A stretch of DNA of 29,699 nt from a virus (taxonomy: Duplodnaviria > Caudoviricetes): the IMG/VR virus record IMGVR_UViG_3300036982_000212, positions 1 through 29,699 of that record. The stretch is one strand, 5' to 3'. The notes under the pieces are model-generated. The model ran no database searches. It saw only the letters and a program-made list of their open reading frames with translations, and had not been told where the DNA came from. Of this stretch, positions 2,081 to 27,257 are shown piece after piece. Made by a program: the position numbers and the translations under genes. Each line of letters starts with the position of its first letter. Within the stretch, counting starts at the first letter, position 1.

Positions 2081-2497
2081 TTACAGGCAGTGAATGACAG
2101 CGAAGTTCAGCACCACGGCTTCGGCCAACGCAGTAGCAGCCGTAGTGTTGCGCAGCACGATAACCGCCGAGCCAGCGGCAAGGCTGTCAACCCACACCTG
2201 ATACGAGTTGGCAGTGTTGCCCGTGGACAACTGCACAACGAGGATGTCGTTGACGCTAAGGTTGTCGTTGTTAAACGTGAACGACACGTTGGTTACGCCC
2301 GCAAGGCTGGCAGCGTTCATCGTGATACGGCCAGCCGACTTGTTCAGCGAGACGGCAGTACTCTTGCTTGTGGCCTGCGTGACGGTGCCTTGAGCGTCGG
2401 TCGTGTAACCAAACTCGTCGGAGGCGAGAACCTTGTCCGCGCCGATGATGTTCTGGTCTTCGTAGGCGACGCCAATTGGCTTCGTGTTAACGGTCAT
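2081..2497 (-). CDS. Small Ala/Thr/Val-rich putative virion structural protein
   Basis: ATG at 2497 lies 2 nt after the terL stop (MTVNTKPIGVAYEDQ...). Beta-strand-like composition; located between terL and portal. Confidence 0.7.
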   Translation of the reverse strand: MTVNTKPIGVAYEDQNIIGADKVLASDEFGYTTDAQGTVTQATSKSTAVSLNKSAGRITMNAASLAGVTNVSFTFNNDNLSVNDILVVQLSTGNTANSYQVWVDSLAAGSAVIVLRNTTAATALAEAVVLNFAVIHCL

Positions 2498-2499
2498 TT

Positions 2500-4032
2500 T
2501 TAGGCTCCCATCCAAGAATTGCTGACAGTGCCGTCCCTGTAGGTTCGGACGGGGTTTCGCGCAGTATACTCCCGATGCGCCACAGGGAAAGCAAAAGTTA
2601 CCGCGATGGCATCCGCAGCGTCCGGGGAGGGTAGTCCACGGGACTTCATGTCCTTTTTGCTTTCGAGCTGGATAGCCCCCGAGGAGTCGATAATCTTGCG
2701 GGGGTTGACCAAGTCAGACTTGAGTTGCCGGTCCTCCTTCATAGAGGCGGTCTTTAGCCAGTCCCGCATGGCACCCCATATCTCGGCGCGCTTGTTTTTC
2801 CACGCCACGGGATTCTTGGCCTTCCAGCCAAAGTTCACGCCCCGGACCTTGTACTTTTGCTCGGTTAGGCGGTCTAGGATGCCGTACCCCAGCCCGCCTT
2901 CGTCTATCACCGTCAGGGTAGGCCGGAAGTCCTCAATCGCCTCAATCACCCGCCCAACGATAGCCATCGTGTCCTCACCGGAGTACCGGCGGATAGCGAC
3001 CAAGTCGCGCCCCTTCCGCACCGCAATTACGGTGGAGTCTAGTCCCCCACGGGCGGGGTCTACCCCGATGACCACGGCAGCGTTCTCGTCCTTGTAGGCG
3101 GGGCGCTTAAACGCCTCATCCACCCAGTGGGCAGCGATAAACTGGTCGTCGCCGGAGGACGGGAACTCCCCGTACACCTCAACCTTAGCCTGGGGTGAAT
3201 CCTCGCCGTATTCCTCAATGATTTGCTTGTAGACAGCGTTGTCGGTGCCTTCTACGTCTAGCGAGTTGATGCTACGGGATGTCCAAAACGCGCGTTTAGC
3301 GTTAAAACACTCAAAAAAGTAGCCGTTAGGGCGGCGGGGGTTAGAAAACGCCATCCAAAAGCGGTTTGGCGTGTTCTCGGTGAAAAAACCTTGGCTAACG
3401 TCCCAGATTGCGTCCGGAATACCGCTGGCTTCGTCAAAAATGACCATCACGCCGTCGTGGTTATGCACACCAGCGTAGGAATCTGGGTTCTCCGCAGACC
3501 ACAGGCGGCCTTCTACCGACCAGTAGCGCGTACCCTTACGCAAATCACGCTCTACCAACTCCGCAACCCACTTAGCGGGCATGACACGGGTAGCCGATAT
3601 CTCAAACCAGTGGCTGTTTATCAGCATCGCCAGCCACTTAGTGATTTCCGCCCATGTCACCGAGCGCAACTGGGCTTCCGAGTTAGCCGAGACGATGATG
3701 GTAGACCCGATGCGGGTAGTGACCATCCACAGGATGAGCCACGACACTAGTGCCGACTTGCCGATACCGCGACCGGAGGCAACCGCCAAGCGGAATACAT
3801 CGAATGTTTCCGCGTCTACCTTGCCGTTGTTCGCCGCGATGTGCGTCTTCAGGTCACGCAACACCTCCCGCTGCCACTTACGCGGTCCACGGAAGTGTTC
3901 TAGCGGCGTACCCTTTTCACCCCACGGGAAGGCGAAGTTTACGAACGCCTCTGGGTCGTTGGCTATGGCGGGTGACCATAGTTTAGCCATGAGCAATTGC
4001 TCATCGGCAGAGGAGTATCGCGGTTCCTGCAT
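2500..4032 (-). CDS. terL: Terminase large subunit
   Basis: 510 aa with Walker A (ASGRGIGKS), Walker B (VIFDEASG), coupling motif (FSNP) and RNase H-like nuclease acidic motifs (IGVDPARGG, SPDAADA). Confidence 0.96.
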   Translation of the reverse strand: MQEPRYSSADEQLLMAKLWSPAIANDPEAFVNFAFPWGEKGTPLEHFRGPRKWQREVLRDLKTHIAANNGKVDAETFDVFRLAVASGRGIGKSALVSWLILWMVTTRIGSTIIVSANSEAQLRSVTWAEITKWLAMLINSHWFEISATRVMPAKWVAELVERDLRKGTRYWSVEGRLWSAENPDSYAGVHNHDGVMVIFDEASGIPDAIWDVSQGFFTENTPNRFWMAFSNPRRPNGYFFECFNAKRAFWTSRSINSLDVEGTDNAVYKQIIEEYGEDSPQAKVEVYGEFPSSGDDQFIAAHWVDEAFKRPAYKDENAAVVIGVDPARGGLDSTVIAVRKGRDLVAIRRYSGEDTMAIVGRVIEAIEDFRPTLTVIDEGGLGYGILDRLTEQKYKVRGVNFGWKAKNPVAWKNKRAEIWGAMRDWLKTASMKEDRQLKSDLVNPRKIIDSSGAIQLESKKDMKSRGLPSPDAADAIAVTFAFPVAHREYTARNPVRTYRDGTVSNSWMGA

Positions 4033-12741: not shown

Positions 12742-12929
12742 TTGGCATCATTGAGCCTGAAGTGTGCCTTGACCATCTAAGCCAGGCTCTTGCCTGCGCG
12801 GGGTTGGAAATGGTGCAGACCAGCGAGTCGGTCATCATCCGCGTGTCCGACGCTTATAAGCATTGGGGCTGGACTAGCATCCACACCGTTCCGCCCCTCA
12901 TCCGTTTTCAGGGGAAATACCATGAGTGA
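12738..12929 (+). CDS. Hypothetical protein (63 aa)
   Basis: GTGA overlap with a GGAGG RBS. Confidence 0.65.
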   Translation: MIGIIEPEVCLDHLSQALACAGLEMVQTSESVIIRVSDAYKHWGWTSIHTVPPLIRFQGKYHE

Positions 12930-13539
12930 CAATCCAAACCAGCAAGCCGCGTGGCTGTTAGAGCGCGTGGGCTTTGTGACTGCTAGCCAGTTCAAGCACC
13001 TGCTGCCCGGCAAGAAGGGTGGTTACCTTGCCGCCCGCGACACCTACAAGTGGCAGCTTGTGACCGAGCGGCTGACTGGCCGCGCTACGGAACACTACGT
13101 CAACCCGGCGATGCAGTGGGGTATCGACCAAGAGGGCTTTGCGCGGGCTGAGTTTGTGCAGCGTATGCGGCTCATGGTGGACTTGGTCGGCTTCATTAAG
13201 CACCCGACGCTGATGTGCGGCGCGTCTCCGGACGGCGTCATCAACGGCGGCGATGGGTTAGTGGAGTTCAAATGCCCGACCACGAACACGCACTTGCAAA
13301 CCATCATGGACGGCATGGACCCCATGCATATGCCGCAACTGCAGGGGCAGATGTGGATGACTGGCGCGAAGGAAGTGTACTTCTGCAGTTACGACCCGCG
13401 CCTGCCAAAGGGCATGGATTTCTTTGTAGACCGTATTGACCGCGACCAGGCGTACATCGACACGCTGGAGACTGAGGTCTGCAAGTTTCTGAACGAAATA
13501 AACGACACGATTGCCACCCTACAGGAGAAGGCAAAATGA
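12922..13539 (+). CDS. Lambda-exonuclease/YqaJ-family exonuclease
   Basis: WLLERVGFVTAS, AMQWGIDQE, GASPDG, LVEFKCP and QLQGQMW motifs. Confidence 0.93.
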   Translation: MSDNPNQQAAWLLERVGFVTASQFKHLLPGKKGGYLAARDTYKWQLVTERLTGRATEHYVNPAMQWGIDQEGFARAEFVQRMRLMVDLVGFIKHPTLMCGASPDGVINGGDGLVEFKCPTTNTHLQTIMDGMDPMHMPQLQGQMWMTGAKEVYFCSYDPRLPKGMDFFVDRIDRDQAYIDTLETEVCKFLNEINDTIATLQEKAK

Positions 13540-14108
13540 TGAACCTTGACCACAGCAACGCCGCACTGTTTGCCGCGCTTGCACTTGCCCAGTCGGAAGT
13601 AGAAAACGCTACCAAGGGCAGCACCAACCCGCACTTCAAGTCAAAGTACGCTGACCTCGCCGAGGTGCTGAACACCGTGCGCCCGGTCTACAGCAAGCAT
13701 GGCATTGCCATCATCCAGTCCACGGGGTTTGACGGCGTGATGGTGTCGGTCACCACGGCACTGGTCCACAAGGAAGGCGGCTACGTTACCTCTGTGGCGT
13801 CCTGCACGCCCGCCAAGACGGACGGCCAGGGCGTGGGCAGTGCTACGACCTATTTGCGTCGTTACAGCCTTGCAGCGGCCTGTGCGGTCGCCCAAGAGGA
13901 TTTAGACGGCAACGACTCTGCGCACAACCGTCCGGCACCTGCACCTGCCAAGCCGAGCAACCAGTTGTTGGACCTGCTGGCGGCTACCGAGGATGCGACT
14001 AGCGAGGAAGTCCTCCGCAACCTGTACAAGGCGACCGAGAGCCTTGTCGAGCATGAGAAGGGCGAGGCCCGCAAAGCCATCGTCCAGAAGCGTTCCACCA
14101 TCAAGTAA
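13536..14108 (+). CDS. erf: ERF-family single-strand annealing protein
   Basis: NPHFKSKYADL and GSATTYLRRYSL...EDLDG motifs. Confidence 0.93.
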   Translation: MMNLDHSNAALFAALALAQSEVENATKGSTNPHFKSKYADLAEVLNTVRPVYSKHGIAIIQSTGFDGVMVSVTTALVHKEGGYVTSVASCTPAKTDGQGVGSATTYLRRYSLAAACAVAQEDLDGNDSAHNRPAPAPAKPSNQLLDLLAATEDATSEEVLRNLYKATESLVEHEKGEARKAIVQKRSTIK

Positions 14109-14116
14109 GGATAGAA

Positions 14117-14506
14117 ATGAACATCATCACCATCACCGGGCGCGTCGGTCAGGACGCCGAACTCCGCCAGACCCCGCAGGGCCGCGCTGTTGCCAACTTC
14201 AAGGTCGTCGTGGACGTAGGGTTTGGCGACAAGAAGCACGCCCTGTGGATTGACTGCTCCATGTTTGGGCAGCGCGCTGAGAAGGTCGCCAAGTACATCA
14301 CCAAGGGGACTCCGGTCACCGTGTACGGGCAGTTTGACCTGCGGACGTACACCACGAAGAACGGACCAGGCGCGTCCATCACCTGCGATGTGGCCGACAT
14401 TGCTTTGCAGGGCGGTAAGCCGAGTGGGGAGTCTCAGGCTGCGCCCGAGCCTTTCGATGACAAGAAGGCGGCTGACGCTGCGTTTAGTGATGAAATCCCG
14501 TTCTGA
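14117..14506 (+). CDS. ssb: Single-stranded DNA-binding protein
   Basis: MNIITITGRVGQDAELR OB-fold start; acidic DEIPF C-terminus. Confidence 0.96.
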   Translation: MNIITITGRVGQDAELRQTPQGRAVANFKVVVDVGFGDKKHALWIDCSMFGQRAEKVAKYITKGTPVTVYGQFDLRTYTTKNGPGASITCDVADIALQGGKPSGESQAAPEPFDDKKAADAAFSDEIPF

Positions 14507-14573: not shown

Positions 14574-14771
14574 ATGACGCAGGAAGAACAAGTGCAGTTT
14601 GCACGGTACAAAGAGGCAACTCTGCGTGCCGATAGCACCATCACTGCACAGCGCAAAACCATTGCTGCTCTCAATATTACGCTGCAAACGCAGCGGCATC
14701 TTATTGACCTGCTGCATGAGCAAGTCCGCAAGATGGAAGGGCAGATGGAAGAGCTGAGGGCCGCACTGTGA
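14574..14771 (+). CDS. Small coiled-coil hypothetical protein (65 aa)
   Basis: AAGGA RBS, ATG 14574; GTGA overlap with the methyltransferase. Confidence 0.7.
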   Translation: MTQEEQVQFARYKEATLRADSTITAQRKTIAALNITLQTQRHLIDLLHEQVRKMEGQMEELRAAL

Positions 14772-16459
14772 GGTACTTGAGCGTCTGCGCCGGGATTGAG
14801 GCGGCAACCTGCGCGTGGCATCACATGGGCTGGGAACCCGTCGCGTTCAGCGAGATTGAGAAGTTTCCCAGCGCCGTGTTGGCGCATCACTACCCCAACG
14901 TCCCCAACTGGGGCGACATGACCAAATTTAAGGAATGGCCTGATGCAAATATCGATGTTCTCGTCGGAGGAACTCCCTGCCAATCATTCTCAGTCGCCGG
15001 ACTCCGAAAGGGACTGGATGACCCGCGTGGCAACCTCATGCTTACCTTCCTTGCCATTGCTAAACGCTATCGGCCCCAGTGGTTGGTATGGGAGAACGTC
15101 CCCGGCGTCCTATCCAGTGAAGGAGGACGAGATTTTGCCGCACTACTTCGAGGGCTGGATGAACTCGGGTATGGGTGGGCGTACCGAGTGCTTGACGCTC
15201 AGTACTTCGGAGTGGCCCAGCGACGCCGCCGTGTGTTCGTTGTCGGATATCTTGGAGACTGGCACCGTGCCGCAGCGGTTCTTTTTGAGCGCCACAGCTT
15301 GTCAGGGCATCCTGCGCCGAGCCGACAAGCGCGGGAAGGAACTACCGCAAGCACTGCAAGCAGCACTGGAACAGGTGGCTGGCCCGCAGACGTAAGCCCG
15401 ACGTTGAACGCTTGTTTTGGCAGCAAGCAGGGTCAAGAGAATCAGCACATCAATGGTGGAGCCGGAATGTTTGTTCCGGTGGCATTTGATGCATTCAATC
15501 AGGCAGACACCGGCGACCTTTCCAAAACGGTGGCAGCCCGGAACGACCAAGACACGGCAAGCCTCGTGTCCGGGTGCTGGTGGGATGGCGGCGATACGGC
15601 GCCAACCCTTACCAAGCAAAATGCTAGCGGCGCACAGCGAATGCCTGACAAGGCCAACTTTGGGGCAGTGCTGCAACCCATCCCCTACGACCTGTACCAA
15701 ATCACCGCGCCAGTAAACCGTCAGAACCGCAAGCCGGGCGACCCGTGCCATACGCTTGCGCGAGATAACGCAGCGCACGCGGCAGTTGCCTACAACATCA
15801 CGTTTTGCGATGCCAACGGCGTCAGGTCAGACCGTCCCAACGGCGGCTTGTACGTTAACGAAACGGATGTGTCTAGCACGCTGACAAATGCGGGCGTTGG
15901 CACGAATGTTGTGCAACCAGTTGCCATCCAAGGCACGCTCATAGGTCGCGGTGAGAATGCCGGCCCGCAGGGAAGTGGCGCAGATGTCAGTGGGGCGATG
16001 TTTACGCTCACCAAGACGGATGTCCATGCGGTGGCGATTGGTACGGATTGTTTTAACGGTCAAGTCACGGGCGATGTGGCTGCGACAATGGGCACTCGCG
16101 GCAGCAGTCAAAACGCTAGCGGTCCAACAGTGATGCAGCCGGTAGCGCAATTCATCGGCGGCGTTGACTATGAAAACAATGCGCATGGTATGGATGAGGC
16201 TACTGGGCCGTTGTTGAAGGGAAGCCCAACGGGCGGTGGTCGGCCGCTGCCAGCCATTGCTACCGCAATGCAGGTACGCCGCCTTACCCCAGTGGAATGT
16301 GAGCGCCTACAAGGCTTCCCAGACGGTTACACCAACATCCCGTGGCGCGGTAAGCCTGAGTCGCCTGACGGGCCTCGGTACAAGGCACTGGGCAACAGCA
16401 TGGCTGTTCCGGTTATGCGCTGGATAGGCGAACGCATCAACAAAGTGGAGGCACTATGA
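14768..16459 (+). CDS. DNA (cytosine-5)-methyltransferase with a very long modular variable region
   Basis: Motif I (SVCAGIEA), IV (GGTPCQSFS), VI (WENVPG), VIII (QRRRRVF), IX (RRLTPVECERLQGFP) and X (YKALGNS). Confidence 0.95.
   Translation: MRYLSVCAGIEAATCAWHHMGWEPVAFSEIEKFPSAVLAHHYPNVPNWGDMTKFKEWPDANIDVLVGGTPCQSFSVAGLRKGLDDPRGNLMLTFLAIAKRYRPQWLVWENVPGVLSSEGGRDFAALLRGLDELGYGWAYRVLDAQYFGVAQRRRRVFVVGYLGDWHRAAAVLFERHSLSGHPAPSRQAREGTTASTASSTGTGGWPADVSPTLNACFGSKQGQENQHINGGAGMFVPVAFDAFNQADTGDLSKTVAARNDQDTASLVSGCWWDGGDTAPTLTKQNASGAQRMPDKANFGAVLQPIPYDLYQITAPVNRQNRKPGDPCHTLARDNAAHAAVAYNITFCDANGVRSDRPNGGLYVNETDVSSTLTNAGVGTNVVQPVAIQGTLIGRGENAGPQGSGADVSGAMFTLTKTDVHAVAIGTDCFNGQVTGDVAATMGTRGSSQNASGPTVMQPVAQFIGGVDYENNAHGMDEATGPLLKGSPTGGGRPLPAIATAMQVRRLTPVECERLQGFPDGYTNIPWRGKPESPDGPRYKALGNSMAVPVMRWIGERINKVEAL
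14943..15395 (+). CDS. Overlapping alternative-frame gene; putative methyltransferase beta subunit (M.EcoHK31I-beta-like)
   Basis: 150-codon ORF in the +1 frame with an AAGGA RBS 8 nt before its ATG. Protein-like C-terminus SLSDILETG.VPQRFFLSATACQGILRRADKRGKELPQALQAAL. Confidence 0.7.
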   Translation: MQISMFSSEELPANHSQSPDSERDWMTRVATSCLPSLPLLNAIGPSGWYGRTSPASYPVKEDEILPHYFEGWMNSGMGGRTECLTLSTSEWPSDAAVCSLSDILETGTVPQRFFLSATACQGILRRADKRGKELPQALQAALEQVAGPQT

Positions 16460-17924: not shown

Positions 17925-18157
17925 TTATCCACCTTGCTGTTGAGCTGGTTGAATATCTTGTCCAGCATCCCCTTCACCTCGGTGATGTCCACGCGGTAAT
18001 CATCCTTACGGACAAACTTCTCGGAGGCATCCAACTGGTGCTGCATGATGCTCTTCTCTAGCGCAGTGTGGTTGTCCCATAGCATCCGTAGGAACCAACC
18101 GGCAACGGAGACGGCGATGGCGAGAAGGGCTTGAAACAGGCTTAGGGCTTCCATCAT
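17921..18157 (-). CDS. Small membrane-anchored coiled-coil protein of the lysis cassette
   Basis: N-terminal hydrophobic helix, then FVRKDDYRVDITEVKGMLDKIF; tandem Met-Met start; directly upstream of the endolysin. Confidence 0.7.
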   Translation of the reverse strand: MMEALSLFQALLAIAVSVAGWFLRMLWDNHTALEKSIMQHQLDASEKFVRKDDYRVDITEVKGMLDKIFNQLNSKVDK

Positions 18158-19860
18158 TGCTCCGCGATAGGACGCGCAATCAAGGCGTTGTAAAGGTAAG
18201 GGTCCATTTCCGGCGCTTCGGCAAATGCGCGGCGAGTGGGGCCGGGAACAGACGCAAGTGCATTACGCTGCGCTCTGTTTGACAGCAGATACCGCTGCGA
18301 CAGCGACCTAGCAGCGGCAGGAGCCACAGCACCTAACGCGCCGCCGGGAAGCCCGGCAACAAGCGTACCAAGTAAGCCGGTGACCGTAGGCGCGCCAAAA
18401 CGATTGATTACGCCGGGCGTACCGATTGAACCTGGCACTGCGGAGTTTACGTTGGGGAACGTGCTAGCAAACTGCGCCGCCGTTCGAAGGTCGCCCGTCA
18501 GTTTGCCTTTGCTTCTGTTTAACTCTGCCGCCAACTTTTTAGCGTCTATTGAACCAGTACCTTCGCGCATAGCGTCTTCTAGCGTGTAACTTATTGCCAT
18601 TCGCTCACGAGCAGCGCGGAAGTCCGCAAGCATTTTAGCGCCCTGCTGACCAGTGCCAGCAAGATGACGCTCAATTTGGTCTTCTAACGCTTTCGCCACA
18701 GCACGGTTTGCCTTGGCAATGTCAGGCTCTCCCTTACGGAATGCTGCCGACGCATTGTCCCGCAAAGACTGTATGCGCTTCATGGCATCTTGCGCGTCAA
18801 AATTGTTGACTAAATTGTCGTCAATGATTTTGCGAACGCTACCGGGTACTGCGTCAGGAAACGATTTTGCTGCGCCAGTGAACTTATCTTCAATATCCTG
18901 CATTGCAGTCAAATAGTCGTTATCAACGGGAACTTGGCCCACCTTTGCTACTGGCTCATATCCTTTTGCCGCTGCTTCAGCGCGCACGGCTTTCATTGTG
19001 TCTGGGGTAAGTTCGTCAGTTTCGCCAATACCTACTGCACGGCGCGCCAATTTGTCAGTTACCTTTTGGTTCTTAGCCGCCGCAATCTGCTGCAACTCGG
19101 TCTTGCCTGCCGCCTGTTCCAAGGCGCGGTTGACCATGTTGGGTTTGACGTTGCCGGGAGGAACAGCGTATCCCTCCGCTTGAGCCGCACGAAACGTGGC
19201 GTCTCGCACAGCGTTTTGAGCGTTAGCCGTATCGCGGGCGGCAACAATTTTCTGTTGCCTTGCGGTAATAGCACTAGGAAGCGCCACGCCTACTGCCATG
19301 CCAGCCAACGGGCTATCAGTAACTTGCGAGGTGGTTTCACCGGCAAATCCGCCCATGCCCGCCCGAAGCGCGTTGACGGACGCTTGCCTAACTGACTGCG
19401 CCGGAGACAACGCACCGCCGGTCAAAGCCTGCAAAGTAGTATCAAGGATTTGCTGCCTCGCTGACATATTATTGGTGTCACGGATAAGCCCTTGCTGCCG
19501 CAAAAAGTTGGTTACCGGCGTTGACGGCTCCTGAACTTCGGGTGCAAGGTCAGGACGACCAAACGCTGTAGCCGCCGTGCCAAATGCCGCTTTACCAAGG
19601 TTGTAGATGTTTTGCGGCGTGCCGTAGATGGCATCGGGGATAGCCGCTAACGCCTTGTATGGCGCGCTGATAGCAACATCTAGCGTAGATGGACGCTTAG
19701 GACCGGCGGGCTTTGCTGGCTTTGCTGACGCGGGCGCGGGCGCACCAAGATGAGGGTTTTGGCGAAGTATCTCCGCTTTTACCTGTGCATCATTTGCACC
19801 TTCTGGGCCTTCAATTTCGTAGGTGTTGCCATCCGGCGCACGCATTTGATAAACGGGCAT
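18154..19860 (-). CDS. Putative DNA ejection/internal virion protein (P22 gp16 position)
   Basis: 568 aa, Ala/Gly-rich and helical; N-terminus APDGNTYEIEGPEGA; last of three ejection-type genes. Confidence 0.65.
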   Translation of the reverse strand: MPVYQMRAPDGNTYEIEGPEGANDAQVKAEILRQNPHLGAPAPASAKPAKPAGPKRPSTLDVAISAPYKALAAIPDAIYGTPQNIYNLGKAAFGTAATAFGRPDLAPEVQEPSTPVTNFLRQQGLIRDTNNMSARQQILDTTLQALTGGALSPAQSVRQASVNALRAGMGGFAGETTSQVTDSPLAGMAVGVALPSAITARQQKIVAARDTANAQNAVRDATFRAAQAEGYAVPPGNVKPNMVNRALEQAAGKTELQQIAAAKNQKVTDKLARRAVGIGETDELTPDTMKAVRAEAAAKGYEPVAKVGQVPVDNDYLTAMQDIEDKFTGAAKSFPDAVPGSVRKIIDDNLVNNFDAQDAMKRIQSLRDNASAAFRKGEPDIAKANRAVAKALEDQIERHLAGTGQQGAKMLADFRAARERMAISYTLEDAMREGTGSIDAKKLAAELNRSKGKLTGDLRTAAQFASTFPNVNSAVPGSIGTPGVINRFGAPTVTGLLGTLVAGLPGGALGAVAPAAARSLSQRYLLSNRAQRNALASVPGPTRRAFAEAPEMDPYLYNALIARPIAEQ

Positions 19861-19869
19861 GACGATTCC

Positions 19870-20988
19870 TTATTTTTTAATGGTCGCCTTGCCCCACCCA
19901 TCTCCACCGCTGTTTGTAGGGGCAGCGGAGGCAGGGGGTGCGCCAACGTCAAGTCCAAGCCCGTATAAGGCGTTCAGGTTTTCTAGCGCAGCAAGGTTGG
20001 CGTCAATGTCAGCGGTGTCTGGGTTAGTAGCCGTGTCCAAGAACAACTTGAGTTCCACGTTACTGTTCATTTGCTGCGCCGACATACCAGTAGCCTGCTT
20101 GATGGCATTAACCAACAGCGGGCGCATATTCTTAATCTTGGTACGCTCAGACTGCGCCGTGGTGCCAATAGCCCCTTCAACGGCCTGCGCCATGCCAGTG
20201 CCTCGCAAACGAGCGCCAATGTTACCTAGTACATCGCCGCCAGGCTGAACCGCCGCGCCTTCTGTGCGTAGCGTTTCGTAAGCGCCGCGCATCTTGTCAA
20301 TGATGGTGCTAAGTTGCTGCTTACCCGGCAAGTTTTTATCCGCCGTCGCCGCGCCAGCGCCAAGTCGCGCTTCCGCTGCTTCGTTAACAGCAGCGTTGCG
20401 TTGGGCAACAGTAAGTTGGCCCCGAGAGATTTCGCGCCCAGCCGCACGGTCTGTCGCCATAGACTGCTGTTCGGCAGTCATGCGATGCTGCGCCACCATA
20501 TCTTTGGCGGTAGTCATCAAATTAAGCACGCCTTCTTTTGACCACGGCGGCATACGGTCTGCCATAGCAGGGTCACGGCTGCGAACAAACTCAACTACGC
20601 GGGCGTATTGGTTTGGGTCATTAACAGCCGCAGGCATCATGGCTTGAGCAGCTTCTAGCGTTTTTGCTTCATACTCGGCTTGCTTTACTTTTGTTTCTGA
20701 CCGATAGCGGTCTCGCTCGGCTAACTTTGCAGCCATGTCAATACCGGGCTGACCAAAGCGAGGCAACTGCTTTTGCACGTCTTCAGCGTAGGGGTCTTCT
20801 GCAGACTGCATAAAGTTAAGCAGTTCAGACTGACGCCGCTGGTTTGTTTGAGCAGTTGCCATTTCCTGTTCAGCAAGCGCATTCTGCCGCTGCATGGACT
20901 GCAACTTCAGTGCGTTGCCATACAGTTCCATTGGCTGCGCCATTTGCGGAGCCTGTGCGCCAAGCGCAATACGAGCATCAATTGGCAT
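19870..20988 (-). CDS. Putative DNA ejection protein (P22 gp20 position)
   Basis: 372 aa, Ala/Gln-rich and helical; MPIDARIALG N-terminus; gene order. Confidence 0.65.
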   Translation of the reverse strand: MPIDARIALGAQAPQMAQPMELYGNALKLQSMQRQNALAEQEMATAQTNQRRQSELLNFMQSAEDPYAEDVQKQLPRFGQPGIDMAAKLAERDRYRSETKVKQAEYEAKTLEAAQAMMPAAVNDPNQYARVVEFVRSRDPAMADRMPPWSKEGVLNLMTTAKDMVAQHRMTAEQQSMATDRAAGREISRGQLTVAQRNAAVNEAAEARLGAGAATADKNLPGKQQLSTIIDKMRGAYETLRTEGAAVQPGGDVLGNIGARLRGTGMAQAVEGAIGTTAQSERTKIKNMRPLLVNAIKQATGMSAQQMNSNVELKLFLDTATNPDTADIDANLAALENLNALYGLGLDVGAPPASAAPTNSGGDGWGKATIKK

Positions 20989-20991
20989 AAC

Positions 20992-21750
20992 TTAACCCCC
21001 CAGCATCGGGTCTTTCCACGCATTCCAGCCAGATTGAATGGCTGCACCTTGCGCGGGAGACGCATATGGATTTAATCTATTAAGCATCTGCTGCTGGGCA
21101 AAGTAATTGCCAATGCTACCAGCCGCTTGACTCATTGCATTGCCCTGCCCAACGTAGCCGGATGCGCGAGCGTTTCCCGCTTGCATATAAGCATCGCCCG
21201 CCGCGTTAGCGTAATTTGCGGAAGCCGCATTTTGCGCGTTAGTTGCGTTAGCGCCTGCCGTCTGCTGGCCCGTCAGCATCTGATACCGCTGGCTGCGGTT
21301 CTGATTGTAGCGGTTGTAGGCGTTCTGGTATTCCTGAGAAGCCATGTCTTGCCCATACCGCCCAGCAGCCTTTAGCGCCTGACCAGACATCATCTTGCCG
21401 CGCATAGCGGCAGTGCGGTCGAGCGATTTTAGCCCCTCCTGTAAACGGAAGGCGTAACCAGGGTCCGCCTGAAAGTCCTCCGTAGAAAAATCGCGCAGCA
21501 TATTGCCGTAGCCCTGCGAGGCGGCATCACCCCCCAAGCCAAACTGGCGCATAAGTTCATCAGTGGTTTTTAAGCCAGCCTGACGGAACGGTTCTTGCCG
21601 GTTTACTTGGTCGTAATACTGCTCGCGCTCCAACTGAGCTGCTTGGTCAGCGGCTTGCCTTTGCGCTTTAGCGGCTTTGCCTGCCGCACTAGATGCCGCG
21701 ACTCCGCCAATGACGGCGCTACCAACAATTGCGGTTGCTATGCCTGACAT
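20992..21750 (-). CDS. DNA transfer/ejection protein (P22 gp7-like)
   Basis: Hydrophobic Gly/Ala N-terminus, AAKAQRQAA, EPFRQAG and DPGYAFRLQEG motifs. Confidence 0.8.
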   Translation of the reverse strand: MSGIATAIVGSAVIGGVAASSAAGKAAKAQRQAADQAAQLEREQYYDQVNRQEPFRQAGLKTTDELMRQFGLGGDAASQGYGNMLRDFSTEDFQADPGYAFRLQEGLKSLDRTAAMRGKMMSGQALKAAGRYGQDMASQEYQNAYNRYNQNRSQRYQMLTGQQTAGANATNAQNAASANYANAAGDAYMQAGNARASGYVGQGNAMSQAAGSIGNYFAQQQMLNRLNPYASPAQGAAIQSGWNAWKDPMLGG

Positions 21751-22610
21751 AAAAACTCCTTAGCCTTAAACTGTATGCCCGATAGGGCCAAGGCTTTCCT
21801 GTAGTCAATAGTGATTTCAGCGCCCAACTCACCGCCCTTGCACCCCGCGATGTCACGCAGCGCAACAAGGTCAATGTCGCCATTCTCTAGCGGAATCATC
21901 ATCGCGTTAGGCGTAAGCGAGTGATTGACGTACCTGCCAGCCTGAGTTCGCAGCCCGGCAAGCCGAGCAGGGCAAATCAAGTCACCAGATTCAAACGCCA
22001 CAGTGGCAAACAAACCTTTGCCCTCAATGGCAGAGTCAGACACCATGACGCTAGTGCAAGGCACTCGGGTTTGGTCGTCAACATTCTCTGACTGTTTGCG
22101 GGCGGTTTCATGGGGGATGCCGCACTGAGACAGCAAATCGAGGTAATCCTGACGGTCAGCAGCGCGAGAAAGGCTTTCCTCGGCTAGTTTAACTGCCGCT
22201 TGCTCTTGCCACGCATCGCTCTTTTCAATGAAATGCGCCTCCACAGCGGCGGCATCGGTAAGGTCAGTGGCGTAAATGTTCTGCCACAAAACATCTTCCA
22301 GAACGTACCCAATTTTGCGACCGGGTTGGCCCACAAACGTCAGCGGCGCGGACAAAGTGGTAGTGCTGCCGTTGTCGTTCAGCATTACTACTTTGCCCGT
22401 CAGCATGACGTTCATGTGAGGGAACTTTTGCTTATGCCCAACGGCTAAAGCGCCCGCAGGCAAAAACACCTGCCGAATAGCAATACCGGGCGCAAAGTAA
22501 TGCACCACAGGGCAATCAACTTGGGGCATGGAAAGCATAGCGGACTCGGCTTGCTCGACGCTTTCATAGGTCTGCAAGGCGTGCATCGCCGTTTCCATTA
22601 GTTCGCTCAC
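21738..22610 (-). CDS. Cupin-like domain fused to a SET-domain (putative protein lysine methyltransferase)
   Basis: N-terminal CPVVHYFAPGIAIRQVFLPAG.LAVGHKQKFPHMNVMLTGKV (double-stranded beta-helix-like). C-terminal SAIEGKGLFA, RYVNHSLTPN, LVALRDI and GAEITIDY (SET signatures). Confidence 0.85.
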   Translation of the reverse strand: MSELMETAMHALQTYESVEQAESAMLSMPQVDCPVVHYFAPGIAIRQVFLPAGALAVGHKQKFPHMNVMLTGKVVMLNDNGSTTTLSAPLTFVGQPGRKIGYVLEDVLWQNIYATDLTDAAAVEAHFIEKSDAWQEQAAVKLAEESLSRAADRQDYLDLLSQCGIPHETARKQSENVDDQTRVPCTSVMVSDSAIEGKGLFATVAFESGDLICPARLAGLRTQAGRYVNHSLTPNAMMIPLENGDIDLVALRDIAGCKGGELGAEITIDYRKALALSGIQFKAKEFLCQA

Positions 22611-22942
22611 GTCACTTCCCGCCCGTTGGACCGGATGTTGATAGCCGAGGCCGTACCCGCGATGGTCGAGATGAACCCGCTGGGAGCAAGCGCCTGGCCG
22701 ACAATCTCAGGGAAGGTGTAGGTTTCCGCAGGCTGCAGCGTCTTGGTCTTCACGATGAGGTTCTGGTTACCCGCCGTGTCTGCCCCGGTGACGAGGTTCA
22801 CGGACAGGGTAGCCGCCGCTGCCGAGTAATTGGTAGCGGTGAACTTGTCGATGATGGCCGTCACGCCGGTAGCCGTGTACTGGGTAGTCTGGCTGTTCTC
22901 CGCAATCTTGGCGGGAATCAGCACTTTTACGTTTACGGTCAC
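22607..22942 (-). CDS. Small beta-rich virion/tail protein (111 aa)
   Basis: Thr/Ala-rich, coupled at both ends, within the tail module. Confidence 0.75.
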   Translation of the reverse strand: MTVNVKVLIPAKIAENSQTTQYTATGVTAIIDKFTATNYSAAAATLSVNLVTGADTAGNQNLIVKTKTLQPAETYTFPEIVGQALAPSGFISTIAGTASAINIRSNGREVT

Positions 22943-23184
22943 AGCAGATTCCTTATGTATTCAACGACGAAGCCGACAGCGGTTGCGCCGCACCCGCCGT
23001 AAATAGTAGCCCACATATCCTCGGGGTCATAGGTTCCCAGCCCAGTTTTCTTGTCCCGGCGCTCCTTGTAGTACCCCAAAAGGGCGGCGAACACCAGTGC
23101 GAAGATGTTGAACAGCGGGTAGAGGCTAGCCGCGACCGCCCAACCGGCGAGGAAGTGGATGATTTTGTCTAGTTGGAGGCGCAT
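22939..23184 (-). CDS. Small membrane protein with DKxxH...KE..D...D..D motif (VanZ/YfiM-like)
   Basis: ATG 23184 overlaps the tailspike stop (TAATG); DKIIHFLAG, YYKERRD and YDPEDMWAT, with hydrophobic segments. Confidence 0.65.
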   Translation of the reverse strand: MRLQLDKIIHFLAGWAVAASLYPLFNIFALVFAALLGYYKERRDKKTGLGTYDPEDMWATIYGGCGATAVGFVVEYIRNLL

Positions 23185-24950
23185 TACAGTACCCCGTCTA
23201 CTTTCCAGTTTACGGTAGCAACATAGCCCGGTGAGCGCGAAGAAACCACGGCAAACTGAAGCTGAGTTTTGGTAACTGCAACTACAATAGCCGATACAGA
23301 ACCATCGCCAGACGCTAGCGAAAAAGACACGTCGGAAGCATTGGGCGTAATTTGAAACGGCTGAGAAAACGTAACCGTCGTGGTTGGCCCAAGGTAAAGA
23401 GAACCGTAGTATGCGGCCCATCCGGATGAAGACGTTGTTGCCGTTCCGCTTTGAGAATCCAATACAACAGAATTGTTTGCGCCCGGCGTAGCTAAAACGT
23501 ATGGCGTTGTAATGTTGCTGTATACGTTAGTGCCAATTTTTACGTCAACGCAAGATGTCAGGCCAATGGCTTGAGAAGTACCGCCGTTGCCTCTAAAAGT
23601 GTTTGCTTCAACAATAAGTGAAGTGATTCCTACTGCGGCGATTCCGTAGCTGTTTGTTACGCCAGGGAGTTGCAATACGTTTCCAGTGATAGATACGTTT
23701 TGTAGCCATGCGCCTGCATCAGTAGAAATTAAATACGCCGTTGGCGTGGCAAGGGAAACGGCCATTTCATTGCCGGAAATAATAACATTTTTAAAAGATG
23801 CTAAGCCAACGCTAACTTTGGTAAACGTAATAGCGCCGGTAGAAAAGTTTTCAATGCTGTTTCCAACAATGTTAACTATGGCGGTATCGGTAGTACCGGT
23901 ATACTCCATAAGATAGCCATACCCGCCGCCAAGCAACTTATTTCCGAGTATTTTTAAACCGCCAGATGTGAGATGACGTATTTGCGCGGCGGTAGTAGAA
24001 GAAGTATTAAAAACGCACGACGAAATAACGGAGTCGCCAGAATCATTGTTGTTAGTGTTATTAACACTAATGCCAGACGCTGTATGCCCACGGAAAAAAC
24101 ATCCGTTAACAATGAAAAAACTAGCGGCTACAAAATCTACGTTTGTTGGAAAGTAACTTATTTCTACGTTTGACAGGTTTGCGAAGGAAGTTTCGCCACT
24201 AGCGGGCAAAAATTGCAGCCCTGCACCAGTTGATTTAAGCAGATTTCCGTTAAGAGTAAAATCTGCAAAGGTAGGAACGCCGGAAGACAACCCTCCGGAA
24301 AGCGTGGTGTATGCGCCTGTAAACTTTATTGCCGCATTACTGCTCGTATCTGTGCAGTTAATAATTGATTTTGTCGGTCCGTCACCAACAATGCCACCTG
24401 CTGAAATTACGATTTGCGAGGTGGTTTTGTAAGTTCCTGAAGGGTAATAAACCGTAGCGCCCGTGGTATGCGCCGCTTGAATGGCAGCCGTATCGTCCGT
24501 TACCCCGTCACCCACGGCCCCAAAGTCCTTCACCGACACCGTGTCACGCAGTTTGGCCTGCACCGTCCGCGCTGTAGCACCAGACCCTGAGTTGATGAAC
24601 CCTACCAAGGACGAACCCGACGAGGCGGCAAGGAGCGCAAGGGCGTCCGTGCTGCTGGAGTCCGAACTGTAGATGTTGTCGTAAGTGCCAATGGTCGCGC
24701 CCGTGGAGGTCTTAACCACGAACTTGTAACCCACGCCGTCCGTCAACCACACTTCGCCAGCCACACGCCCAGCGGCGTTCAGCACGATGGGGTTGCTGTT
24801 GGCAACCAAGCCCGTGGCGCTGGTGTAAGTGGTCTGCGGGGTGGAGGTGCCAGCCGCATAAGTGTAGACCAGGCCACCGGACAGCACCGTGCCGGAATCG
24901 GTGAAGAACTGCCAGCCAGCGCCAGCCAAAAGGGAGAGGGAAACGCTCAT
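23184..24950 (-). CDS. Tailspike with pectate-lyase-like parallel beta-helix
   Basis: ATG 24950 (ATGA overlap). N-terminal particle-binding region (QFFTDSG.VLSGG.VYTYAAGT), VSVKDFGAVGDGVTDDTAAIQAA, and Asn-ladder repeats (ILGN, IVGN, ISGN, ITGN). Confidence 0.9.
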   Translation of the reverse strand: MSVSLSLLAGAGWQFFTDSGTVLSGGLVYTYAAGTSTPQTTYTSATGLVANSNPIVLNAAGRVAGEVWLTDGVGYKFVVKTSTGATIGTYDNIYSSDSSSTDALALLAASSGSSLVGFINSGSGATARTVQAKLRDTVSVKDFGAVGDGVTDDTAAIQAAHTTGATVYYPSGTYKTTSQIVISAGGIVGDGPTKSIINCTDTSSNAAIKFTGAYTTLSGGLSSGVPTFADFTLNGNLLKSTGAGLQFLPASGETSFANLSNVEISYFPTNVDFVAASFFIVNGCFFRGHTASGISVNNTNNNDSGDSVISSCVFNTSSTTAAQIRHLTSGGLKILGNKLLGGGYGYLMEYTGTTDTAIVNIVGNSIENFSTGAITFTKVSVGLASFKNVIISGNEMAVSLATPTAYLISTDAGAWLQNVSITGNVLQLPGVTNSYGIAAVGITSLIVEANTFRGNGGTSQAIGLTSCVDVKIGTNVYSNITTPYVLATPGANNSVVLDSQSGTATTSSSGWAAYYGSLYLGPTTTVTFSQPFQITPNASDVSFSLASGDGSVSAIVVAVTKTQLQFAVVSSRSPGYVATVNWKVDGVL

Positions 24951-25732
24951 AGCAGGTTCACCTGTGAAACAGTCAGGACTACCGAGTAGGTAGCCGGGAT
25001 AGCGGGCGGTCCAGCCGCCGCCGCCACGTAGGGAATGGTAACGCTGGCCGAGGTCGGACACCACACAATTTCGACATACTGCCCAGCATACAAAGTCAAG
25101 AAGAAGTTCCAGCCTTTGATGTCGTGGCCGTCTACGCCGCCGTGGCGATTTTGAATGGACAGCTTGCCGTTGGAGCCAGCAACGTCTACCCCGTCCACCC
25201 GCAGCCAGATGTCTACGTCCTGCAGGGAGGCGTCCGAGTTTTCCAACTGGACGCTGAACTGAAGGTTGTACACCCCGGCGTAGGTAAAGTAGACGCGGGA
25301 GGTGGTCGTGCCGATGTACACGCCACGGGAGATGTCCGTGGTGTTGTAGGTCAGCGCGACGGGGGTATTGGCGGCAGTTGACTGCGTGGTAGTGTCAAAA
25401 AATGACCCGTACCGGAGGGTTTGCACCTCAAGGGGGATGGGGGTCAAATACAGCGCATCTACGCTGCTCTGGAGCGTCGCTATGGCGGCGTCCGAGGAAA
25501 TGGCTGGGGGTAGTACCTCTAGCCCGTGTACGCCCGCAGAGAGGGCTTCCGTGCCGTCCGCAGGGGGGCCAACCTGAAGGTCGGTCAGGGAGATGGTGCT
25601 AGTACCGCTGCCCGTTAGTGTGTACAGGTTGATGAAAAACCGATACCACTCCCGCGACATTAGCCCCGTCCGCTTGTCGATGAAATCGACTCGGGGGGCG
25701 GGGATTTGGGTGATGTCAGGTAGGCTAGCCAT
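24947..25732 (-). CDS. Tail protein (P22 gp26 needle position) with a C-terminal jelly-roll-like knob
   Basis: PAPRVDFID..TGLMSREWYRFF N-terminus; AGVYNLQFSVQL...IWLRVDGVDVAGS C-terminal domain. Confidence 0.7.
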   Translation of the reverse strand: MASLPDITQIPAPRVDFIDKRTGLMSREWYRFFINLYTLTGSGTSTISLTDLQVGPPADGTEALSAGVHGLEVLPPAISSDAAIATLQSSVDALYLTPIPLEVQTLRYGSFFDTTTQSTAANTPVALTYNTTDISRGVYIGTTTSRVYFTYAGVYNLQFSVQLENSDASLQDVDIWLRVDGVDVAGSNGKLSIQNRHGGVDGHDIKGWNFFLTLYAGQYVEIVWCPTSASVTIPYVAAAAGPPAIPATYSVVLTVSQVNLL

Positions 25733-27257
25733 TGGTGCCACTGATAATCAGTTCAGCACCAAGGATAACTACCTTCACAGGGTCAGTGCCGGAAATCTCG
25801 TACACGCGGTCGCGCAACTTGGTGGTCATGCCAAGGCGGCGGAAGATGACGCGCTTGCCGTACTGACCAATCTTGCCCATGCTGGCCCAACGCTCGTTAG
25901 ACCATGTGTGACCACCGTCATCCGAGAAGCGGAGCATGACCTGGGGGTCGCTGCCCAGCACCCCGTAGTCCGAGATGAGCAGGTCTACGCCGGACTCGGT
26001 GAGCAGGGTAACGTCCGTTTCCGTGGTCAGGGTGACGTAGGCCGAGGCGTCAAACAAGTCCAAACCGGACAGCCCCACGCCCGACTCGCAGTCTAACTGG
26101 AGCGAGTGGTGGGTGGTGCGCTTCAGTTCGTTTTGTCCCGTGGGCAGCGCCCGCCACGACCGCAGCCACTTCTGCGGCTCACCGTTGTCAGCGTAGACGG
26201 ACAGGTCAAGGACGTACACGTTGCCGTTTTCAAAGTCGCCAACGTGGGGGTCATTGTTGTAGGCGGCGTGGCAGCTGCTGCGGTGGCGTACAAACTCGCC
26301 CAAGGAGAACCCGGCGCGCTCATGCCAAGAGTTGACCGCTACGTCGTACACCCAAGTCTTGCCAGCAGTGGGGAAAATCAGCACATAAAATGCGTGGCCC
26401 TCTTGCTGATATGTATAAGCAATGGCGTCCGAAATAGTGCCGTAAGACTGGATGGCGTACTCAATTGCATGAGTAGAAACGCGCTGTCCCGTGTATCCGT
26501 TGGCGCGGTAGACAAGGCCTTGCCCCCGAGCGTCAGCACCCAGCCAGAAGATGCCATTGTCCAGCTTGGCAACCGAGTACGGGGCAATGCAGCCGATTTC
26601 ATTGAACGCGCCTTGAATGCGGGTCAGCGGGAAGTCCGCTTCGCCCGAGTTGTACCAAACTTCCGTGGAGTCCGTGCCGAACAGCCACAGTTCGCGGTGG
26701 TCTACAATGAGCGACACCAGTCCGTCAGGCGAGCCTTCAGCGGACGCAAAGTCCAGCGGGTCTACCGACAAACCGTCCAGTAGGGAGGTAATCCACACCG
26801 TCTGGCTGTTGGGCTGGTTGAATACAAAGTAGCCGTCAAGGTAGCCTACGTTTACCGCGCCCTCAAAGTCAGGGTCGGTAATCTGGGCAAACACGTCGGT
26901 GTTGTAGTTGTAGATGAACCCGTCAGGGTTGCAGGCGATGAACAACTGAGTGCCGTTGTCCGCCATGCTCACAGCGCCAGTACCCGTCACCGTACCCTTT
27001 AGGGTGGCGACGTAGCCGGTGGTCATCTGGTAGAAGCCCGTACCCGAAACGACGTACAGGTAGCCGCCGTGCGACCACAGGCCACGGATAGGGCCATCCC
27101 CTACGGTAGCCACTAGGCGCAAGCCAGGCGCACGGTTCAGGAAGCCGGGTTCCTTACCGCCTTCAGGCACGGCTTCTGGGAACAAGTTGATGCAACGGTT
27201 GTCGGCGGCGTTAACCGACCGAGCAACGTACGCTGCCCCGAGGATGGGGGTCTTCAA
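25725..27257 (-). CDS. P22 gp10-like tail hub / DNA stabilisation protein
   Basis: 510 aa with a TTG start overlapping the upstream stop; DPLDFASAEGSPD, LWLFG..STEVW, YQQEGHAFYVL.FP, SDDGGHTW and RRLG motifs. Confidence 0.9.
   Translation of the reverse strand: MKTPILGAAYVARSVNAADNRCINLFPEAVPEGGKEPGFLNRAPGLRLVATVGDGPIRGLWSHGGYLYVVSGTGFYQMTTGYVATLKGTVTGTGAVSMADNGTQLFIACNPDGFIYNYNTDVFAQITDPDFEGAVNVGYLDGYFVFNQPNSQTVWITSLLDGLSVDPLDFASAEGSPDGLVSLIVDHRELWLFGTDSTEVWYNSGEADFPLTRIQGAFNEIGCIAPYSVAKLDNGIFWLGADARGQGLVYRANGYTGQRVSTHAIEYAIQSYGTISDAIAYTYQQEGHAFYVLIFPTAGKTWVYDVAVNSWHERAGFSLGEFVRHRSSCHAAYNNDPHVGDFENGNVYVLDLSVYADNGEPQKWLRSWRALPTGQNELKRTTHHSLQLDCESGVGLSGLDLFDASAYVTLTTETDVTLLTESGVDLLISDYGVLGSDPQVMLRFSDDGGHTWSNERWASMGKIGQYGKRVIFRRLGMTTKLRDRVYEISGTDPVKVVILGAELIISGTNG

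Follow-up and report, generated by a model that had tools for sequence, protein, structure and literature searches.

The window analysed here, the whole stretch of 29,699 nucleotides from the tailed-phage record IMGVR_UViG_3300036982_000212 (Caudoviricetes; a linear 29.7-kb virus record of 79% estimated completeness), carries on its minus strand a gene for a 290-amino-acid protein in which a cupin domain is followed by a very small SET domain (mini-SET). The gene directly precedes that of a first ejection protein similar to gp7 of phage P22. A comparison of 351 loci, including the window, suggests a link between the SET domain and the third residue of the protein that is encoded next: the residue is small in 193 of the 222 loci with a SET domain and bulky in 125 of the 129 loci with only a cupin. 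This link appears to be new, and in the comparison of loci it is the N-terminal three residues of the gp7-like protein that stand out, not a lysine. We consider it quite probable that the cupin-SET protein is an active enzyme, and likely that the N-terminus of the gp7-like protein is its partner; the more specific reading, in which the alpha-amine of Ser2 of the gp7-like protein would be methylated before packaging, is put forward tentatively and with slightly less than even credence.

For every cupin open reading frame (ORF) the next gene was taken to start at the first ATG within -45 to +60 nucleotides that opened a frame of at least 60 amino acids with a small/hydrophobic start, and residue 3 was classed as small (G/A/S) or bulky (F/W/V/L/M). 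Duplicates, truncated ORFs and loci lacking a qualifying next gene were left out (21 rows of the first locus set, 3 of the 55 of the next, and 17 rows of the later scans plus 46 of their loci that were already included), and three starts (L192, L445, L484) were set by hand, by which L445 entered the bulky class. The first 262 loci showed G/A/S in all 155 loci with the order cupin-SET, a bulky residue in 97 of 100 cupin-only loci, and Phe in 7 out of 7 with the order SET-cupin. In the pooled set, small residues were found in 181 of 193 cupin-SET, 12 of 29 SET-cupin and 4 of 129 cupin-only loci. A small residue 3 (197 loci, 193 with SET) thus nearly requires a SET domain, while a SET domain does not require a small residue. 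Clustering at 60% cupin identity left small residues in 54 of 64 SET clusters versus 4 of 46 (Fisher p 3e-16, a value that ignores ancestry). The product of the second downstream gene, used as a control, has a small residue 3 in 25 of 167 SET loci versus 29 of 104 non-SET loci. Residue 2 is S/A/T/G/V in 350 of the 351 loci (Ser in 188 of 193 cupin-SET versus 85 of 129 cupin-only loci); such residues permit the removal of the initiator Met by methionine aminopeptidase, which is therefore possible in these 350 loci.

The change at residue 3 can also be followed between close relatives. The sister pair L027/L046 (90% identical over residues 4-90) starts with MSGI versus MAWV, the pair L253/L250 (cupins 92% identical) with MSAV versus MSVV, and the pairs L281/L231 and L146/L049 show a similar flip. 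In the RSK1 lineage the G-I/L-S/T tail is retained and residue 3 alone changes from F/L to A/G. In 12 loci with the SET domain encoded first, residue 3 is small though the SET part does not adjoin the next gene, some of these proteins having W or F at position 4. The 13-nucleotide gene overlap was considered as the source of the pattern and rejected, because the cupin-only loci L131 and L435 share the overlap and have Trp, and SET loci with junctions at -4, 0 and +1 keep G/A/S. In four loci (L380, L488, L512, L525) the cupin-SET gene is followed by genes for proteins of 839-1124 amino acids that start with M-S-G or M-S-S; given these, the residue-3 rule may follow the position and not the protein family.

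The domain assignment of the 290-amino-acid protein relies on several comparisons. The whole protein matches PHROG 34170 (Table 1), and its residues 12-138 match two phage cupin families. The AlphaFold2 model (built from 101 sequences) has a predicted local distance difference test score of 90.9 and a predicted template modelling score of 0.86. A comparison of the model with 48,161 solved chains by VIA-align placed residues 29-131 on cupins (Z up to 10.0, root-mean-square deviation (rmsd) 2.0 over 83 residues) and residues 178-271 on SET domains: MLL1 (Z 9.6, rmsd 3.5 over 91), EZH2 (Z 9.4) and SET8 (Z 9.0, rmsd 1.9 over 79). These Z values are middling, yet they are in line with the sequence profiles and with the viral structure library BFVD, which returned SET matches; the fold prediction asked for in the original prediction thus came out in its favour for both domains. 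The Pfam SET model (PF00856) scores above its cut-off (27.4 versus 22.4 bits, E 4.8e-6, residues 224-270) and is the only Pfam family found, with no match to PF11090 or PF11039. A profile of the family matches the chains of MLL1, EZH2, vSET and SETD8 (best E 5e-8), and a search of the Protein Data Bank with the single sequence gave chance matches only (E 0.06 or worse). By profile, fold and motifs the protein belongs to the SET superfamily. The last two helices of the linker (D152, D155, D179) accompany the SET domain in every architecture seen, D179 being present in 215 of 222 loci.

The SET signatures occur in the order that had been read from the sequence, at residues 197-202 (GKGLFA), 226-235 (RYVNHSLTPN) and 263-270 (GAEITIDY), and the catalytic residues are kept among homologues: all 222 SET loci have N229 and H230, while Y270, E265 and G199 occur in 221 and R221 in 218. 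A post-SET Cys cluster is indeed lacking; the lone late Cys288 is encoded by the codon that is shared with the ATG of the next gene. GxG and NH are separated by 29 residues in 205 of 210 SET loci, versus about 64 in MLL1 (profile alignment), which makes the substrate-binding insert about 35 residues shorter than that of MLL1, and aromatic residues are absent from this stretch in 184 of the 222 loci. The aromatic SET-I insert, a hallmark of lysine methyltransferases, is therefore not present in the family. In known enzymes this insert helps to form the peptide groove and the lysine channel, so that with a short insert mostly devoid of aromatics a normal lysine channel looks unlikely. As the cofactor motifs are conserved and the insert is missing, the binding of S-adenosylmethionine (SAM) looks intact and the recognition of the substrate must differ; the linker or the cupin could stand in for the insert. 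The protein thus lacks one defining feature of protein-lysine methyltransferases, and we do not class it among them.

These features bear on the reading proposed at the outset, in which the SET domain would methylate lysines of ejection proteins or of other proteins of the virion; in the version weighed here, the cupin would hold the N-terminus of the substrate and the SET domain would reach a nearby lysine. To our knowledge nearly all characterised SET domains methylate lysine, the nearest solved relatives are H3K4, H3K27 and H3K20 enzymes, and the Lys tracts put forward as substrates (AAGKAAKAQ in the gp7-like protein and the tract of the 568-amino-acid protein) do exist in the ejection proteins of the window. 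The first tract did not stand as a substrate: among 132 aligned gp7-like relatives from cupin-SET loci K25 is kept in 49 and K28 in 37, the best Lys column of the alignment reaching 51. Lys is absent from the first 45 residues more often in SET loci (74 of 222) than in cupin-only loci (18 of 129), and the Lys content of the second gene product is similar (0.067 in SET loci versus 0.060). This comparison covered the gp7-like and second ejection proteins. Together with the missing aromatic insert, these counts make lysine methylation of virion proteins an unlikely reading. Host proteins had been named as further targets; nothing in the comparative data points to them, and host proteins were not examined.

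The N-terminal domain is a cupin by fold (strands 35-114 of the model form the double-stranded beta-helix; matches to PpnP, Z 10.0, HP0902, Z 9.8, and DddK, Z 9.4), but it is not a canonical metal cupin. Alignment with TM1459-type cupins yields H59, Q61 and H65, with Lys99 at the place of the expected motif-2 His, so that the protein lacks the canonical four-ligand arrangement of motif 1 (H-x-H-x3/4-E) plus motif-2 His. Positions 59, 61 and 65 vary across the family, and a canonical cupin metalloenzyme was rejected since the ligands are not conserved; the fold of the His-containing cupin that had been suggested earlier was confirmed. A non-canonical site with two or three metal ligands may still be present. 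Position 61 follows residue 3 of the next gene product: His61 is found in all 154 loci with a bulky residue 3 versus 57 of the 197 with a small one. 

Cupin-only genes are found in this slot too, among them some at the T7 gene 13 position, which would also suit a non-catalytic escort. In that case the cupin, alone or with SET, would bind the hydrophobic N-terminus of the pore-forming ejection protein and deliver it to the procapsid, and the SET domain, perhaps with SAM, would only reshape the groove. Covariation as such indicates contact and not chemistry, and the available parts of two papers describe T7 gp14 as water-insoluble (PMC8954989) and P22 gp7 as loaded through its N-terminal part (PMC8402733). 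Against an escort stands that NH, GxG and the terminal Tyr are near-invariant in 222 divergent loci, beyond what a passive groove usually needs, and that the effect on residue 3 persists when the SET domain precedes the cupin. We regard an escort as improbable, to the same degree as lysine methylation.

Under the preferred reading, alpha-amine methylation, the cupin-SET protein and the ejection proteins would probably be made from one coupled transcript, as the gene overlaps suggest. Host methionine aminopeptidase would then expose Ser2, the cupin would likely grip the tip, and the mini-SET would methylate the alpha-amine of Ser2, the presumed acceptor. A reaction at an alpha-amine does not depend on a long lysine channel. 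The methyl groups may substitute for the Trp, Phe or Val side chain found in cupin-only phages: these have a bulky residue 3 together with His61, both of which can be lost in the presence of a SET domain, and the two states would likely be interchangeable ways to finish or handle one and the same N-terminal tip. Candidate purposes are loading into the procapsid, protection against aminopeptidases and insertion into the outer membrane. The same covariation would fit a reaction at another atom or form of this N-terminus, either on Met1, should it be retained (at its alpha-amine or its sulfur), or on the side chain of Ser2; the enrichment of Ser2 in cupin-SET loci agrees with this, and SET channels are known to accommodate the Met of K-to-M histone mutants. 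Against it, residue 2 permits Met removal in 350 of the 351 loci, SET loci whose residue 3 is small also include cases of Ala2, Thr2 and Gly2, and the gene overlaps partly force Ser codons; we find such a variant rather improbable.

Several observations weigh against alpha-amine methylation. In the later scans (SET-first order and bacterial genomes) the small/bulky counts were 26/12 for cupin-SET, 12/10 for SET-cupin and 2/27 for cupin-only loci. In total, 29 of the 222 SET loci (12 cupin-SET, 17 SET-cupin) have a bulky residue 3 and intact-looking motifs, and four cupin-only loci have a small one. With well-supported branches only, the independent pairs numbered 5 in the first tree (4.7 the same way, 0 opposite, p 0.0625) and 6 in the pooled tree (4.0 the same way, 0 opposite, p 0.125); the alignments behind these trees are short and leave many open forks, and the traits change 17 and 15 times on the cupin trees. 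The ejection proteins of L017/L021 and L295 are 89% identical over residues 4-90 and their cupins 32% identical, about 15 N-terminal residues having moved along with the upstream gene, which mere linkage would also produce; this crossover some 15 codons into the ejection gene indicates that the tip can move with the slot gene. The linker and mini-SET also occur without a cupin, as a tandem and within a protein of 1549 amino acids. The N-alpha methyltransferases named in the available part of PMC10293735 (NTMT1/2, METTL13 and PrmA) are all seven-beta-strand enzymes and not SET proteins, and the part of PMC8402733 at hand reports that the N-terminus of mature P22 gp7 was sequenced as Lys-Gly-Gly-Lys-Gly, which argues that it is not acetyl-blocked and excludes P22 from a general capping rule for the slot.

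A strict rule by which a C-terminal SET domain always goes with a small residue was rejected on the later scans. Ten of the 12 bulky cupin-SET loci belong to one lineage, the main exception to the pattern, which has Gly for A215 in the SET domain. This long-branch cupin-SET lineage (L454, L503, L504, L509, L511, L515, L516, L518, L528, L534) has kept Phe3 and His61. An inactive SET domain as the cause of the 29 exceptions was not supported, NH being intact in all of them.

These exceptions, the pair tests short of significance, the crossover just inside the ejection gene and the presence of the SET domain in four or more architectures would also suit a mobile passenger with a methylation target among host proteins or metabolites late in infection, with the residue-3 pattern due to linkage and shared ancestry. 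The single-residue changes on a retained scaffold in the RSK1 lineage, the shift in SET-first loci and a turnover that stays mostly inside the classes G/A/S and F/W/V/L/M together argue for more than linkage. Moreover, no pair changed in the opposite direction and the second-gene control was negative, for which reasons we hold the passenger to be the least probable of the alternatives weighed here.

The mini-SET has GxG, RxxNH, ExxxDY and the fold in common with vSET of PBCV-1 (A612L; PDB 1n3j), MLL1, EZH2 and SETD8, and like vSET it is small and has no post-SET zinc cluster. Unlike these enzymes it misses the ~35 insert residues and has A-R-x-x-G-x-R-T with conserved arginines instead, is combined with a two-helix acidic pre-SET element and a cupin partner, and occurs in a bacterial virus where there is no histone target, nor a conserved substrate lysine in the gp7-like proteins. 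With NTMT1/2, METTL13 and PrmA it would share the proposed reaction, the SAM-dependent methylation of a free N-terminal amine that is read via the first residues, and PrmA pairs a recognition domain with a catalytic one, as in cupin-SET (PMC10293735, in the part available). Their seven-beta-strand fold is not found in the 290-amino-acid protein (SET plus cupin), and we claim a similarity in working and no homology.

T7 gp13 (PF11090) and P22 gp14 (DUF2824) occupy the same slot, before gp14 and gp7, respectively, and would have GNAT-like folds unrelated to cupin-SET, which our searches did not show. The original prediction had placed a GNAT-like protein in this slot and proposed to survey the locus in relatives: cupin-only and cupin-SET genes were found there, and for T7 gp13 and P22 gp14 the searches named only PF11090 and DUF2824. 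T7 gp14 begins with Met-Cys-Trp, which resembles the cupin-only class; as far as PMC8954989 is available, it describes this protein as forming the outer-membrane pore and exiting first. P22 gp7 is matured by cleavage by host OpdA, and its new end could be sequenced. It loads via its N-terminal part, is N-terminally processed and tolerates loss of the leader (PMC8402733, available part). Tentatively, and with slightly less confidence than for the methylation of the gp7-like tip itself, we suggest that short-tailed phages have a swappable 'tip-finishing' gene before the first ejection protein, in which SET would have been repurposed as an N-terminal methyltransferase. If true, this would be a SET enzyme with alpha-amine specificity, a new reaction for SET domains, and a phage-encoded maturation of the protein that opens the host outer membrane. 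The choice, loading and first exit of ejection proteins are poorly understood, and no settled function for the slot gene (T7 gene 13, P22 gene 14, the mislabelled cupins) was found in the searched literature; the residue-3 rule offers a substrate, a position and natural swap pairs.

The cupin-SET family is widespread: 1044 out of 5563 candidates pass E 0.001, and the linker-plus-SET profile recovers 2658, 934 and 200 cluster representatives at E 1e-3, 1e-10 and 1e-30, respectively. Among the 150 linker-SET matches listed, 109 are cupin-SET, 7 SET-cupin and 34 lack a cupin (some probably fragments), and a search for shorter homologues gave 14 proteins that are cupin-only or SET-only pieces, several probably cut at contig ends. 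Those listed without a cupin include a SET-SET tandem (P0152) and a linker-plus-mini-SET module at residues 410-528 of a 1549-amino-acid protein with no other family match (P0277); a further mini-SET ends a 545-amino-acid protein with a 270-amino-acid N-terminal domain of no assignment ahead of the cupin (P0145). The RSK1 and BA3/PH1 lineages are separated in the SET domain tree, each as a supported clade. Two cultured phages have full-length orthologues, namely Rhodoferax phage P26218 (gp30, 51% identity) and Pseudoalteromonas phage PH1 (gp49, 30% identity); both have the same position, are annotated as hypothetical and precede a gene that starts with M-S-G; a methyltransferase is not mentioned in the available part of the P26218 genome paper (PMC4657236). 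No published study of the family was found in a searched literature that lacked most subscription journals.

Of the 63 matching phage records 8 match over 80% or more of the query length; the others among the matches listed align with the cupin only. The PHA00672 / PHROG 12032 and 24280 cupins (RSK1 ORF13, phiAp1 ORF43, BA3, VPMS1; 130-190 amino acids) share the slot and a homologous N-terminal domain with cupin-SET. They have no SET domain, His61 is kept in them, and the product encoded next has a bulky residue 3. In RSK1 and in 8 of 10 inspected cupin-only records the cupin gene stands ahead of the first gene of ejection type; in phiAp1 and SnaP-R1 it takes the place of T7 gene 13, just as P22 gene 14 stands ahead of gene 7. 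The two remaining records have short next genes with a like N-terminus: in Alteromonas phage H4/4 (L137:3372-4072) the cupin-only gene lies between RNA polymerase and portal and the next gene encodes 84 amino acids (M-S-F), and in Xanthomonas phage DES1 (L138:3444-4168) it lies off the usual slot, with a next product of 102 amino acids (M-S-W). Three loci (L302, L303, L304) have a related gp7-like gene with no annotated cupin directly upstream, where a tail-collar gene or small hypothetical ORFs are found; phages may thus be able to do without the slot gene or to replace it. A tail-fibre or adhesin function, as given by the PHROG labels, was rejected on fold and size, and the labels 'short tail fiber' and 'tail fiber adhesin' on these cupins (PHROG 12032, 24280; RefSeq phages) look like a propagated misannotation; according to PMC8703784, the phiAp1 annotation lacks experimental validation. 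If the proposal holds, a phage family that is very common in the environment would receive a corrected annotation, and the orthologue in the cultured phage P26218, whose host Rhodoferax is harmless, is a natural starting point.

The late region of the window is of the P22 type and is encoded on the minus strand: terminase, portal, gp4-like adaptor, gp10-like head closure and tailspike, followed by three genes in ejection-protein positions and then endolysin and holin. The cupin-SET ORF runs from 22610 to 21738 with a GTG start; a reading on the plus strand was rejected, as that frame is full of stops. The overlap of 13 nucleotides with the gp7-like gene, noted before, is present, and the ribosome-binding site of the latter ends 5 nucleotides ahead of its ATG. 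The coupling to the upstream gene that had been noticed was also found; that 111-amino-acid ORF, labelled a 'tail gene' before, has no Pfam or PHROG match that would support the label. The profile searches against Pfam and PHROG gave no family above cut-off for the 372-amino-acid ORF and no match for the 568-amino-acid ORF.

Table 1. Positions within the window of the cupin-SET gene, its parts and the surrounding genes.
Feature	Position	Strand	Evidence
Cupin + mini-SET gene, 290 amino acids, PHROG 34170 family	21738..22610	-	phrog_34170 E 1.4e-87, residues 4-279
Cupin barrel, residues 28-131; H59, Q61, H65	22218..22529	-	profiles, model, VIA-align, BFVD
Three-helix linker, residues 132-180	22071..22217	-	model: H132-148, H150-163, H167-174
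Mini-SET, residues 181-275: GxG, R-T-x-x-G-R-x-x-N-H, E-x-T-x-D-Y-R	21786..22070	-	profiles, VIA-align
AAGGAG ribosome-binding site of the gp7-like gene, within the 3' end of the SET gene	21756..21761	-	sequence
P22 gp7-like first ejection protein, 252 amino acids	20992..21750	-	phrog_598 DNA ejection, E 7.6e-32
Codons 1-3 (Met-Ser-Gly) of the gp7-like protein, proposed recognition site	21742..21750	-	locus comparison; chemistry inferred
372-amino-acid ORF, putative second ejection protein by position	19870..20988	-	gene order as P22
568-amino-acid ORF, putative third ejection protein by position; holds Lys/Ala/Pro tract	18154..19860	-	position
111-amino-acid ORF, upstream of the cupin-SET gene, GTGA overlap	22607..22942	-	sequence
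P22 gp10-like head-closure protein, marker of a short-tailed P22-type tail module	25725..27257	-	phrog_578 E 7.5e-133

Elsewhere in the window, a C5 cytosine DNA methyltransferase of 563 amino acids with a long non-matching middle region (14768-16459, plus strand) stands after genes for a YqaJ exonuclease, Erf and SSB (12790-14506). An unmatched ORF of 160 amino acids (22939-23421, minus strand) overlaps the end of the tailspike gene and lies partly in the kilobase with the lowest GC content of the window (23001-24000; 0.48 versus about 0.57). Between terminase and portal a beta-rich ORF of 144 amino acids was found (2081-2515, minus strand), which belongs to phrog_18251, a family of unknown function.

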